NCBI GenBank assembly: GCA_965655095.1
Contig: OZ296648.1
Span: forward strand, 156,364,001-156,428,000
DNA length: 64,000 bases
Reading direction: 5' to 3'
From: Haplodiscus bocki
Taxonomy: Eukaryota
The notes beneath the pieces were generated by a model. That model searched no databases. It was given only the letters and a program-made list of their open reading frames with translations, and was not told where the DNA came from. This document shows positions 56,765 through 61,112 of this stretch, in pieces (position 1 is the first letter of the stretch; each line of letters opens with the position of its first letter). The translations under genes were made by a program, and so were the position numbers.

Positions 56765-59700
56765 ATGTAATAGTTGAAAGTAAGCCACGCCCTTCATCAT
56801 GGTTGATGAAAAGAAGAAAACGAAGAAGAGTCGAGTCGTTGTGAGAGGCGAGGGTAGTTGTCATGTGGAGAGTTCCGGAGCAGCCCCGGATGCTGTTGTG
56901 TCCCCTTTTGATCAGTTCTCCCCTGATCCCCCCATTGTGCGTGAGGCTGTTGGAAGTAGTGGAGATGCGAAGAGACGAGTGAACGACGAGGGCACAGAAG
57001 CTGACGATGAGTCAGAAATCATCTCTGTGGGTGGACCTCTGCCAATTGTTGGTGGGTGTGAGTCAGAGGGAGTCACCTTCGAGGAAGCAGTCGGGAGAGC
57101 TGGTCTCATTTCGGAGACAGAAAATGCACTTGATACTGCCGGACTACCGATTTGTTAGTTTTCAAACTTCTCAATATCCATTAACTTTTTATTACGATGT
57201 CACACTGGCCAGTTGTTCGATCCGTTTAGTCAGTTTTCATATGCGCACAATTTCAGTAGAAGTTGATTTCGCCATCGGGTTGTGTTTTAGTGTACGATTC
57301 TTGCGGAGAACTTGCCAGAAAGTCAGCTCGCGGTAGTGGAGAGCAGTCTGCTTCGGGCAGTGAGTTTGAGGTTGGCGGGGCAACTTCTGGAGAGGACTTT
57401 CCCCGGGAAGCTTCCCGGAGAGCTCCGTTGGCAGCTGTTGCTGAGAGTTAGCATTGCTCTCGCTTAGTTGCATGGTAGTGTTTCCAGTGTGTTTTCATGG
57501 TTGTGTTCTGCATTATAGGCACTGAAGAAGAGACATGAGGGGATGGAGCTGGAGAGGTGTCCACTGGCGTGGAGAGCGAGAGTGTGGTGCGCAGGAGACG
57601 AGCTGTTGTTACTAGACGACTAGTACCGCTCGCTGGGGGCCCCAGCATTCTCTTGCTGCTGCCGACTCAAGCGAGAGTAGGAGTCGCCAGCTGCTAGAGA
57701 AGGCGTTTGATGAGGGTATACCTTGTTTCAAATGAGTAGTCTTCTAGTTTTACTCCTCGTTTGCTCCGTGTTTGTAATCCATATTTTCCTGTTTTAGATC
57801 AGTACAGTGGAAATCCTTCATCTTCAGTGATTCGGGCCACAGGGCATCAGCCGGTGTCTCTTTGCCGCTCCATGGTGGTGGAGGAGGAGAAGAATCAGCT
57901 CCGGGTTCCATTAATGACCAGTTAGTACTCCGGAACTGTTCCGTATGACTCCGTAATTTTGTGGTTTCACCATTTGTTATTTTGTTTGCAGAGCTTGATG
58001 AGGTGTTGGACAAGCTGAACCAGGGGCCTTCTGTGTCACAGCAACAGCAACGCACGACTGACACAATGGACACCAATGGGGGGGAGACTGACACAAGCCA
58101 GCCTCGACGGAGGGTACGCTCAAAACGTACCTTCAAAATGAAGAAGAGCAATGCCACCAGTGACTTGGCTTGTTTTTTTGTGACTGGTCCCACTAACGCT
58201 TCCACAAAACTGAGTGAGTTCTACTGCCGGCTTGGCCGAAAAGACGTGTCGGTCCCCACCCATGGCAGTTCGGAGGTCTTGCGCCATTTTCAAGGGATAC
58301 GGCATTTTGCAAGGGATCAGCGTCTCCGACTTGAGACTCCTGGGTGGCGTGTCCTTGGGTTCGATGGCAAGCCTTTGACAGAGGATGAGCTGGAGAGACA
58401 GCGTGAAAAATTTCTGCGGGCTCCCTTTGTTGTTCGGGACAGAGAATACCCGTACCGTGAGGACTTGATTCCGGATGCTTCCAGAAACACTGACCCTCAA
58501 CTTCCTGTGCTCGCCAAGGTTTCGTCCCTCGTCGATGTACTCCAGCTGGGCGGAAGTTACGAGTTGGTTGAGCGTCTGTGGGAGCGGTTCGTCTTGACAG
58601 CCAGTCGAGTCAATGTCAGCGTTATCTGGTCGCGCAATGAAGTTTTGGTTAGTTCCGTGTGTCCCCCGGAATATATGTGTAGGCTCTTTGTCGCATATTT
58701 GCTCATTTATTTGTTTCAGTCAATCATTCTGAATGGAATGTTTCCCCGATTTTTTGACCGGGTTGTCGAGTGGGTGAAAGCGCACAAACAGTTTGGGCTG
58801 GAATTTGAGGACCGTGGTTCCCGTACTTGGGTGTTCGTGAGGACATGGCGGCGGGACAGTTTTTTCCGTGTGGCTGTGGAGTGATCGATTGCTATCATGG
58901 CAATGCTAGCAGCGAACTGGTCATCCTTGGGCAAGTTCTTGCGCAATTGGCAGTGGGGCGTCATTGGTGTCAATTTCTGGGGGGTCACACAACCCTGTTG
59001 AGAGCTATAAGGAGTCTTTGGGAAGCGGGTGTATGCGCGGAGTGTTGGATTATCCAACTTTTGATGTCAGGTTGCTCAAACGCTGCCTACAAAAGACTGC
59101 TTCCACTGTGTTCGGCACGCTCGATCCGTTTTCGATGACTGAGTTCATCGTGACCAGACTCAAAGGTGCTGAGCATCGTGATTGGATGCAGTCGAGACAA
59201 TCCTTGCGAAGGGCGATTGAGACAGGTGATCTTTCCCTGCCTCGGCTGGTGGATGTTGTGAGCAACATCATCGGGGTTTGGCCGCTCATTGTCTCTTACC
59301 TCAAAGAGACTGGCAACAAAGACAGCGGCGATAGTCTTGTGGTATGGTTTTCCCCTTTTAGTTTCGGTATTGGCATGACTGCCAATGCTTATTTCCGTTT
59401 TCATGTTTAGAAAAAAGGGATAGATGGATACTTCTACATTGACCAGCGCGGGAGAATGAGGTTCCGCTTGTTCCATCTCATCCTTGAATTGTGTTGGTAT
59501 TTTCATGCACTGTCACAATTGTGTAGTGTTTTCCATTCCCACACGGGTTTTGGTTATAGGAATTCTAGGAGTCAACGTGTAGCGTTCCTAGTTGTATCCT
59601 CATTTCCACATGTTTAGGGATTTCTAGGCGTCCAAGTGTGGCGCTCCTAGTGGTATCCTGGTTTCCACATTTAGTCATCAGAGGTTTTCTTCTGTTTCAG

Positions 59701-61112
59701 ACATCAACAACTTCGCAACACAGCAGCCTGCACGGAACGATTACGGCTACCGTGCATATGGTGAACTATTGCACTTCGTGTATTGATTGCTGCAGAAAAT
59801 AAAGGCCAGTGGATCTTTGCCTGTTGTCGAGAAGTGGGAGGATTACATGCTCCCGAACCATTCATCCTTCACAGCCATCGAGGATCAGCATTTTCTTGTC
59901 GGGACTCGCGTGCATGCAGCGCTGGAGAAAATGACAAGCCAGTATTTGAAGAAGGAGTTTAAAAGCAGTGCCCGTCGTTTTCTTGAGGACTTCACCAGCA
60001 CCGTTTTATCTACTGTCGCCGCTCGTTCGAAGCTGGGTCAGGGCGTCAACTGCTTTGGCCCAGAGATAATTATCGGGGCGATGACCATTCCGCCTTTTTT
60101 CTCTTTGGACAGCTCCTGGACGGCTTGGTTGAGTGTGGGTGGGAGAAAGGGTCGACGTTTCAAGCTTGCAAAGCTGAATTTCAATCCTTCGTGAATGACC
60201 AGCGCCAACTTGAATGTCATGCCAGTAGAAAGCACTCTGACATTAGTAACGTCCTCAGTTACTTGACTCAGCAGAGTGGTTTTCGGAGTCGCCGGCACCT
60301 TTACCGAGTAAGTCTGGTGGGCTTGCAAATTGGTTCCATTGCTGTGGTCAGACATTAAAAATTGTTGTAAGTTTTAGGTCTTCCAATTGACAGCATTATT
60401 TCAAGGTGGTCCTGCAGAGGAGATACCCCGATTCCAGCTAAATCTTGACCGTGTCACAATTGATCACCGTTCAATCGATTCTGCTATCTGCTGCGTACAA
60501 AGTTTTATATGGGACCCTCTTTTCACTCAGCGGGATTTCTTCACAGACAGTGGTATCTCGATGTTGCTGAGTGCTGTAAACGTCGCAGGCAGTGTTTGTG
60601 AAGACTGTGTGTATGACCCTTGGGCTGTTATATCTGCCGAGGGATATGCTGCTGTTGTCTCTGACTTAAAAAGGGCGTATGATGTAGTTGTGGTTCGCCA
60701 GAAGGATGCTCGAGACATTTCTGAGCGACGGTTTGGTGTAGGTAGCGTCGCGTCTTCTGCTGCTGGAGATTCTTCGGGTCAGCAAGCTGTTCGCATTTCG
60801 AATGTTGTTGAAGTCGGTCAAGTGGAATATTTGCCCCAGTCTGTTTCTGCCACACAAGTGCCCAGTACGAGTTTCGCTGTCAAAAGCCCTGGGAAGGGGA
60901 AACAAAAGAAGATAGAGACGCCCGTCAAAACTGCTGTCAATCGTCGTTTTAAATTCGACGAAAAGTCGGTAGTGCTGCCCAAGGGACGGGGAGTTTGTTT
61001 TGATGACCCCAGTTTTGCAATTGCTCTGCGAGATGAAGATAAAACTGATTCCTCGCGCCGTAGTGGTCGTAGTCGTCGTGCTGCACCAGTCTTCCAGTCA
61101 AGTCCCCGTTAA
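56765..61112 (+). pseudogene. Nine-exon antisense cargo gene of the Gypsy element; ~1180-aa zinc-finger protein of unknown function (this copy disrupted)
   Basis: Exons: ~56765/56799-57153, 57291-57446, 57519-57715, 57798-57920, 57992-58647, 58720-59341, 59411-59496, 59701-60307, 60378-61112. All 8 introns are GT...AG with pyrimidine-rich acceptors (137, 72, 82, 71, 72, 69, 204, 70 bp). Phases match at introns 1, 2, 4, 5, 6 and 8; introns 3 and 7 each need one upstream indel. CxxC(G)-H-H finger at 58225-58305. In-frame TGA at 57536 and 59784, plus several frameshifts. Confidence 0.8.

Follow-up and report, generated by a model that had tools for sequence, protein, structure and literature searches.

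A Ty3/gypsy LTR retrotransposon of 15.7 kb in the genome of Haplodiscus bocki carries, antisense between pol and its 3′ LTR, a gene whose product appears to descend from a hAT DNA transposase. This descent is supported by profile and structure comparisons, two independent methods that agree. The gene (hereafter the cargo gene) lies within the 64,000-nt stretch of DNA that we analysed (the window), where it is predicted to comprise nine exons on the + strand (56799-61112). The original prediction of a cargo protein at 58200..60700 thus fell on a real gene but fell short of its full extent. Because the zinc finger has been kept and the cutting residues lost, the product is likely to be a DNA-binding regulator, and we assign a probability of about 0.5 to the reading in which it serves its own element by acting on short repeats in the LTRs.

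The carrier element and its antisense gene

The carrier was classified as Ty3/gypsy by its paired LTRs, PBS, PPT and gag-protease-RT-RNase H-integrase order. Its 3′ LTR is 96.2% identical to the partner LTR, located 5.7 kb past the window end, and the pol regions in Table 1 are followed beyond that end by RT, protease, gag and the 5′ LTR, in that order. Among other copies of the element, LTR pairs were detected in 18 of 20 (identity 94-99.8% in 17 of the 18 pairs found), a TGG-type PBS and 5-bp duplications in several, and a gag knuckle and protease in copy L031; the family is evidently very abundant and young. A second accessory ORF (ORF2), head-to-head with the cargo gene and broken in the window copy, is present in 79/79 loci and has a dN/dS of 0.22 within this element family; a Pfam search with it returned no match.

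Antisense additional genes are common between pol and the 3′ LTR of LTR elements (PMC7264820), and the cargo gene has the position, orientation, presence in most copies and pol-like conservation of an antisense accessory ORF (aORF-3R). Across 79 loci examined, it runs antisense to integrase in all 71 that show both, and none of these loci lies outside a Ty3/gypsy element, at least five subfamilies of which carry the gene. Searching the same genome with the finger exon yielded 6407 candidates, with identities of 84-100% for all 150 scored. Upstream of the predicted exons lies a TATA-like word that we infer to be a candidate internal antisense promoter. From 56799 the conserved exon 1 reads MVDEKKKTKKSR and is itself basic, while D+E make up 18-19% of exons 1-2 and basic clusters occur at both ends of the predicted protein. 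The KRRKRRR stretch originally proposed as a nuclear localization signal lies in the wrong frame, within a 12-codon off-frame ORF at 56806, and in 10 of 19 copies this frame meets a stop within 5-6 codons. An earlier exon 2 candidate (57230-57475) was dropped, all of its frames being closed. The cargo copy in the window is broken.

Table 1. Features of the element and its cargo gene, in window coordinates
Feature	Position	Strand	Details
3′ LTR	54031..55773	-	~1.74 kb
ORF2	55692..56404	-	sense to gag-pol; Pro/Ser/Thr-rich
Polypurine tract	55774..55790	-	G-run immediately preceding TGTCGCAG; likewise in other copies
TATA-like word	56753..56759	+	40 nt upstream of cargo start; TATAAAT in 14/19 family copies
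Exon 1 (predicted)	56799..57153	+	basic start, then acidic low-complexity region; D+E 0.19; stop-free 11/19; donor GT 18/19
Exon 2 (predicted)	57291..57446	+	acidic; stop-free 15/19; AG 18/19, GT 16/19
Exon 3 (predicted)	57519..57715	+	stop and frame break in window copy
Exon 4 (predicted)	57798..57920	+	stop-free 18/19; AG 18/19, GT 18/19
Exon 5	57992..58647	+	zinc finger and helical region preceding catalytic-type domain; donor GT in 75/78 loci across subfamilies
Zinc finger	58225..58305	+	CxxC-x16-H-x5-H, hAT N-terminal type; window copy lacks second ligand
Exon 6	58720..59341	+	RNase H-like core and start of insertion domain; AG 64/69, GT 75/78; stop and frame break in window copy
Exon 7	59411..59492	+	short helix exon; AG 74/77, GT 73/76
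Exon 8	59701..60307	+	helical insertion-domain part; GT 67/69; stop and frame break in window copy
Exon 9	60378..61112	+	third catalytic position, C-terminal helices, basic Ser-rich tail, stop; AG 62/64
Integrase region of pol	61556..63150	-	several stops in window copy; weak Integrase_p58_C match
RNase H part of pol	63151..64000	-	RT_RNaseH E 6e-14

The peptides on which the original prediction was built, including FGLEFEDRG (starting at 58792), RLVDVV (59243) and ARRFLEDF (59970), are present on the + strand in the order it gave, and evidently belong to a real conserved gene rather than to chance frames. Splice sites are retained in 93-97% of loci across subfamilies with saturated synonymous sites; the relative P0046, no more than 53% identical to any G000 copy scored, still has the exon-5 junction. 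Shared variants among 19 copies, read in the cargo frame, number 13/0, 14/0 and 13/0 (synonymous/non-synonymous) in three 90-nt bins. With 8 copies pooled, dN/dS is 0.09 for exon 5, 0.10 for exon 7 and 0.17 for exon 8, compared with 0.14 for integrase, indicating purifying selection on the cargo as strong as on integrase; exon 9 has a dN/dS of 0.41.

Standard annotation overlooks this gene: cargo pieces and their homologues gave nothing significant against Pfam, and protein searches recovered it neither in spliced form nor under a name. Both half profiles were also run against PDB sequences, with 0 matches at E 10. From 1.84 billion representatives we retrieved 1401 matches, the best 150 of which were all family fragments (≥43% identity), so that remote relatives were crowded out; searches for longer relatives turned up unnamed ENA proteins (5 and 3) but not a single host gene, which is weak evidence.

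Evidence for hAT ancestry

The closest relatives found are not of the Hermes/Ac type and form a hAT clade without Pfam matches (loci L131-L210 and P0157-P0276), with an SMDGPNVN motif, a further HGQASVERGFS motif and CAGGGT..CCAC ends. Its members include 'uncharacterized' proteins of fish, echinoderms, ticks, molluscs and cnidarians; the D-D-E, CxxH and RW motifs are invariant in the clade, and HHalign relates it to PF05699-positive hATs (69%, E 4.4e-5). Inverted ends (CAGGGTT..CCAC) were recovered at 2 of 18 of the clade's own loci, none with a clean 8-bp duplication. In two host relatives (L224 and L226) the ends are CAGGGTGGCCAC, with 8-bp duplications, and the ORF matches the clade profile (E 4.7e-30).

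HHalign matched the cargo to this clade at 92.4% (E 5.2e-7, score 65); 12 column shuffles scored no higher than 27.5 and the reversed control 20.6, and HMM matches between the two were reciprocal. The alignment to the reference alignment A3 spans 426 columns and is collinear, which bears out the hAT domain order proposed at the outset. Exon 8 provides the strongest hAT match (92.6-94.3%, E 1e-7 to 5e-7), and exon 6 alone was non-significant against the reference clade (score 18.9-20, shuffles up to 25.9). The PF05699 C-terminal dimerisation domain gave no match on the cargo pieces, nor in the reference clade (0/23 and 0/11).

On the structural side, Foldseek ranked Hermes first (E 1.6e-4, 424 columns, 8 of the top 10 rows) with a low-confidence query model built solely on family sequences, and this result agrees with HHalign on the predicted hAT derivation. 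Neither structure model is good, mean pLDDT being 38.6 and 49.7. Exon 6 was modelled as three strands, helix, strand and helix at pLDDT 50-68, and the C-half model, uninformative at such confidence, matched no fold. VIA-align did not single out Hermes, scoring it (Z 4.2-4.8) below glucokinases (Z up to 6.2).

As to the donor, Ac/Hermes-type host hATs were rejected (HHalign 0.6-1.1%, best HMM score 4.2 bits), and the host's own CAGG-ended hAT is unsupported as a direct donor (best 1.6 bits). The genome contains no exact MDGPNVN-coding match, and a protein search recovered decayed or distant pieces only.

Zinc finger, catalytic site and possible function

An N-terminal hAT-type finger had been predicted, and its four ligands indeed align to those of reference hATs at posterior 0.97-1.0, with an HHalign score of 33.5-37.5 against a shuffle maximum of 22.5. 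Of the 72 copies compared, 65 have all four ligands and 69 have the second, which the window copy lacks. Pfam zf-BED does not match the cargo; one hAT N-terminal finger exceeds Pfam's zf-BED cut-off. The finger is almost invariant, save for two subfamily-variable positions in the helix before the first His. In the Hermes BED finger this helix enters the major groove (PMC10368747), and by analogy the variable helix of the cargo may do the same.

In the alignments, the first and third catalytic residues are lost from the cargo: the first D is replaced by E (43 of 60 rows), A or V, and the third E by G, H, L or I (posterior 0.84-0.94). The second D, CxxH and RW seem to be lost as well, with a less sure register: the second position is G or V depending on the register, neither of which gives Asp (posterior <0.6), and no conserved motif matches CxxH or RW (posterior <0.6, two registers competing). 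The D, D, E triad of an active hAT transposase is accordingly absent, in line with the original remark that catalytic residues were not obvious. The TIRs and 8-bp target duplication of a hAT DNA transposon were not found around the cargo either. The window has no TIR-like word at 55774-61600. Across the 79 loci, 5 contain one, in three cases within the exon-6 region, and none of these words pair as ends.

We propose that an ancestral element received a hAT insertion in reverse orientation between its pol and 3′ LTR, and that this hAT lost its ends and chemistry and was then retained. An internal promoter near 56750 would yield a spliced mRNA and a nuclear protein of ~1180 residues, and the introns would survive reverse transcription because the gene is oriented opposite to the genomic RNA. 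The protein would bind the short repeats clustered in the LTR, probably as a multimer via several fingers, after which its acidic N-terminus would activate or protect the element's own transcription. Hermes uses several fingers in this way on its subterminal repeats. The 3′ LTR contains a 61-bp tandem duplication and short-repeat arrays of TTCCG(G/T)A and ACTAGT; repeat counts are 6 and 9, against shuffle means of 0.2 and 0.5, for motifs picked post hoc after inspection. GTTCCGT occurs 2-7 times per LTR in 58/58 LTRs. These repeats could instead be host-factor sites. Strict pairing of finger helix with LTR motif was not observed: the mapping is not one-to-one, the GHHEVLRH helix accompanying two LTR types and the GGCACGT LTR type four helices, and the cargo reassorts relative to integrase (10 label changes, minimum 4).

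Selection acts on the whole transposase body, beyond the finger alone, and such conservation evidently exceeds the needs of a simple activator and counts against the regulator reading. It would suit a protein of the same origin acting as a cofactor of integration or nuclear import, in which a dead transposase ring would hold on to the LTR cDNA ends or to target chromatin and anchor the integrase complex there. hAT multimers capture element ends with BED fingers (PMC10368747), and the LTR that houses the repeats makes up the cDNA ends. However, the reassortment of cargo against integrase fits poorly with a tight partnership and the acidic N-terminal exons appear better suited to a transcription role, so that we consider this role rather unlikely.

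We hold it unlikely that the protein is a VANC-like counter-defence factor blocking chromatin or small-RNA silencing of its own family. The abundance and youth of the family would favour such a role, and the subfamily-specific repeat arrays and variable finger helix recall the variable tandem repeats that VANC targets (PMC5735166). However, we saw no sign of CpG methylation needing removal: CpG observed/expected in the element is 0.81-1.02, and LTR-pair transitions amount to 52/1943 at CpG versus 173/7954 elsewhere. This lack of CpG decay weakens anti-silencing in the form of DNA demethylation; silencing may still act through other marks.

H-x5-H C2H2 fingers of the U1/matrin type bind RNA, and the resemblance of the cargo finger to them, together with the basic protein ends, would accord with RNA binding (Rev-like, in genomic RNA export or packaging). 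A self-limiting repressor may be considered alongside, the antisense genes of complex retroviruses often being regulatory (PMC11963269). Both roles are improbable in our judgement, as the spacing and ligands of the finger align to hAT N-terminal fingers, including the one that passes the zf-BED cut-off. Finally, continued activity as a nuclease or transposase through an unusual active site, or a protein not derived from hAT at all, would draw on the conservative D-to-E change, several invariant acidic columns, the uncertain middle of the alignment and the empty Pfam and PDB sequence searches, but is highly improbable given a freely variable third position (posterior above 0.9), a second position without Asp in either register, no flanking hAT terminal repeat and two independent methods favouring hAT.

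Returning to the regulator, we place at slightly under even odds the wider picture of a retrotransposon that has domesticated a DNA transposon as a private multi-finger transcription factor or intasome tether, with a recognition helix that diversifies from one subfamily to another and a cassette swapped relative to pol. If so, a dead hAT transposase may underlie the expansion of the family to thousands of copies, and a predicted eight-intron gene of ~1180 codons can pass through reverse transcription when placed backwards.

Comparison with known systems

Hermes (PDB 8edg, 4d1q, 8sjd) shares with the cargo an N-terminal zinc finger and an RNase H-like core with a helical insertion (PMC10368747). 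The cargo differs in its lost catalytic residues, lack of terminal repeats, long acidic N-terminus and C2H2 rather than CCHC ligands, and its match to the Ac/Hermes-type profile is non-significant. The Pfam-less clade shares the finger spacing and domain order and is the cargo's best profile match; unlike the cargo, it keeps D, D, E, CxxH and RW in single open frames of ~800 residues and has CAGGGTT..CCAC inverted ends at two loci.

Domestication of transposases by hosts is already known, and ZBED proteins are host-domesticated hAT transposases. DAYSLEEPER (PMC3499209) is another such case, and in both the transposase was retained as a probable DNA-binding regulator. The cargo, unlike these, was retained by another transposon and has been amplified along with it to many hundreds of copies; the literature searched contained no earlier case of a class II enzyme domesticated by a class I element. 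VANC of VANDAL DNA transposons resembles the cargo as a TE-encoded accessory protein associated with variable short repeats in non-coding parts (PMC5735166), but is an unrelated protein of plant Mutator-like hosts, and the genome of the cargo is without a CpG-decay signal.

The same antisense position between pol and the 3′ LTR is occupied in plant Ty3/gypsy elements by Grande gene23, RIRE2 and Retand TRP28/PF04195 (PMC7264820). Like the cargo, the plant antisense ORFs are conserved and present in nearly all copies, and they are proposed to be nuclear DNA-binding regulators with their own promoter; their origin is given as unknown, and the review, citing a lack of similarity to other TEs, regards the nested-TE route as unsupported (PMC7264820; PMC11963269). 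The cargo differs from them in its traceable hAT origin, eight predicted introns and animal host. If our reading is correct, it would clearly exemplify the nested-TE origin that has been suggested for the antisense accessory genes of LTR elements and found to lack support, and would make this class testable from a known fold. An ancestor with well-studied biochemistry allows concrete tests, which can start from the finger and its helix and from the repeats in the LTR.

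Position, abundance and gene model of the cargo

All peptides quoted in the original prediction were found on the + strand, between the integrase and 3′ LTR of a Ty3/gypsy element, within a gene (the cargo) that we predicted from frame conservation and GT-AG signals to have nine exons, eight introns of 69–208 nt and ~1180 codons. The KRRKRRR frame that had been read as NLS-like proved to be a 12-codon off-frame ORF; the conserved cargo start is itself basic. Searching the animal's own genome with the finger exon recovered 6407 candidates, of which 150 were scored (84–100% identity), while two database homologues led to two further large subfamilies (150 scored matches each) and a divergent homologue to two additional ones. 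Of 79 fetched 10-kb loci, 71 show both cargo and integrase, and in every one of these the two are antisense to each other; ORF2, a second accessory ORF, lies head-to-head with the cargo in 79/79. Because these loci were the top matches, cargo-less elements and free-standing copies fall outside the sample. The divergent cargo homologue P0046, with ≤53% identity to any copy scored here and the exon-5 junction kept, may come from a related species.

Across 19 family copies, each splice site is kept in 16–19 of 17–19 aligned copies, against a mean conservation of 0.82 for other intronic GT/AG. Seven sites compared across subfamilies, between which synonymous sites are saturated, were kept in 75/78, 64/69, 75/78, 74/77, 73/76, 67/69 and 62/64 loci. 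Pooled over eight copies, dN/dS was 0.09 for exon 5, 0.10 for exon 7, 0.17 for exon 8 and 0.41 for exon 9, and the values for integrase and RNase H were 0.14 and 0.07. The window's own cargo copy lacks one zinc ligand, and its exons 3, 6 and 8 are interrupted by stops and frame breaks. ORF2 encodes ~240–300 Pro/Ser/Thr-rich residues with a terminal CEAC motif; it is conserved (dN/dS 0.08–0.22) and its Pfam search gave no match.

The carrier, on a contig of a 1.5-Gb animal-type genome, has gag, protease, RNase H and integrase in the usual order, and its window copy is decayed. LTR pairs were present in 18 of 20 other copies examined (pair identity 87–99.8%). These also have a polypurine tract and a TGG-type primer site, and several show 5-bp duplications. 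The gag frame begins within the LTR and continues across its end and the primer site, so every 3′ LTR bears a copy of the gag start, an arrangement resembling that of Ty1.

Features of the window and of compared loci (L, fetched loci)
Feature	Location	Strand	Remarks
Ty3/gypsy element	from 54031 on	-	total ~15.7 kb
3′ LTR	54031-55773	-	partner LTR 96.2% identical, 5.7 kb past window end
gag frame start	54031-54420; L031:3500-4348
ORF2	55692-56404; L053:1712-2614	-	extends into 3′ LTR
Predicted cargo gene	56799-61112	+
hAT C-terminus remnant	5220-5735		ordinary type, PF05699 E 8e-11; unrelated to element
Tandem array	17850-19060		9-bp unit, strong G skew
Degenerate repeats	33100-34800; 42900-49200		period ~177 bp, 1065-bp duplication; without long open frames
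2.79-kb host hAT family	L224:4056-6846; L226:3342-6130
Young hAT family	L093:3104-4975 and matching places		624-codon open frame
Intronless frame	L096:252-1274		adjoins hAT insertion; farnesyl-diphosphate-synthase-like by motif

Relationship to hAT transposases

Pfam and PDB sequence searches with the cargo returned no match. Twelve natural read-through frames were used to model the N-terminal half. Overall quality was poor (pLDDT 38.6), but an RNase H-like core reached pLDDT 50–68. The top Foldseek match to this low-confidence model was Hermes transposase (E 1.6e-4, probability 0.89, 424 columns), which filled 8 of the top 10 rows. VIA-align detected a generic fold only (Hermes Z 4.2–4.8, glucokinases up to 6.2), and the C-half model found no structural match.

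Testing a hAT type with an SMDGPNVN motif as a lead, we gathered its natural members, comprising 72 frames in 80 metagenome loci and 120 homologues among the matches listed. Against this reference clade, HHalign gave 84% for the cargo C-half, 92.6–94.3% for exon 8 (score 57 versus ≤33 in 30 shuffles), a score of 33.5 for the finger (≤22.5 for shuffles), and 92.4% for X-linked exons 5–9 (E 5e-7; score 65 versus ≤27.5 in 12 shuffles and 20.6 reversed). Exons 6, 7 and 9 were not significant singly, though exon 6 aligned at the expected place with the reference A3. On the clade, the cargo profile reached 34 bits (≥15 bits in 37 of 175 reported proteins), versus ≤4.2 bits on host PF05699-type loci, and a reverse search ranked exon-8 frames first of 10,306. 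The Foldseek ranking and the HHalign matches thus bear out the hAT origin originally proposed, and we judge the cargo gene to be real and put the probability that it is hAT-derived at about 0.9.

Assignment of the reference clade itself to hAT rests on its invariant D-D-E, CxxH and RW, its match to PF05699-positive hATs (69% in profile comparison) and a zf-BED hit over cut-off in 1 of 11 proteins. It is widespread in animals (751 proteins with E ≤1e-5; loci L131–L210, proteins P0157–P0276), its members lacking a Pfam match and being named 'uncharacterized'. The ends of the 2.79-kb host relative read CAGGGTGGCCAC and 8-bp duplications accompany them, described as the hAT hallmark (PMC3942097); these ends differ from the TAGGGTG reported for hATm (PMC6004678). 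The relative's long open frame is undetected by Pfam, and its copies are 95–97% alike. The young hAT family has many equal-scoring copies, probably reflecting recent hAT transposition in this genome.

Catalytic residues had been called not obvious, and the alignment agrees: at the place of the first catalytic D, 43 of 60 rows show E and 13 show A or V (posterior 0.84–0.87), and the third residue, E, is replaced by G, H, L or I (0.91–0.94). For the second D, CxxH and RW, two alignment registers compete (posterior <0.6), and the Asp is restored in neither. No terminal repeats were found flanking the cargo gene. Judged from sequence, the protein is very likely no longer a transposase, and we predict with high confidence that it is catalytically dead.

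Possible function

The finger is the best-kept part of the cargo (65 of 72 rows retain all four ligands), and two residues of the helix before its first His vary between subfamilies. In Hermes, the corresponding helix is described as entering the major groove, and the multimer as collecting fingers on short subterminal repeats (PMC10368747). The LTRs bear arrays of short, often palindromic repeats: GTTCCGT is present in 58/58 LTRs, and window LTR repeats number 6 and 9 versus shuffle means of 0.2 and 0.5, for motifs picked after looking. The cargo begins with acidic exons, and 14 of 19 copies have a TATA-like word upstream of the start. On these features and the Hermes analogy, we favor, at roughly even odds, a DNA-binding protein that would regulate the element's own promoters. 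There is no one-to-one pairing between helix type and LTR type, and cargo subfamilies form clades on the exon-8 tree and not on the integrase tree (4 versus 10 changes), which argues against a tight lock-and-key. Synonymous divergence between subfamilies is only 0.4–0.7 for integrase, 0.4–2.7 for RNase H and mostly saturated for the cargo (loci L032–L130); together with the disagreeing trees, this points to recombination between modules. That the cargo serves as an integration cofactor seems unlikely to us, and a counter-silencing factor somewhat less likely still, a VANC-like demethylation role being disfavored by the absence of CpG decay.

Comparison with known systems

Captured genes are described in rotifer LTR elements (esterases and exonucleases; PMC5408684), and many extra domains in planarian Burro elements (PMC6431247). 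Sunflower Athila extra ORFs are reported to match PF20167 'Transposase_32', related to Athila ORF1 (PMC11728184). A term search of the Arabidopsis TE-product atlas returned no hAT or antisense passage (PMC13547354), and our full-text search of the main text of openly accessible papers turned up no gene of hAT descent that had become fixed in an LTR element. Plant gypsy elements carry antisense extra ORFs at the same position, described as being of unknown origin and as lacking similarity to other TEs, except for the PF04195 'transposase 28' domain, whose role is given as unknown (PMC7264820; PMC11963269). The cargo is like these ORFs in position, and differs from them in its probable descent from a hAT transposase.
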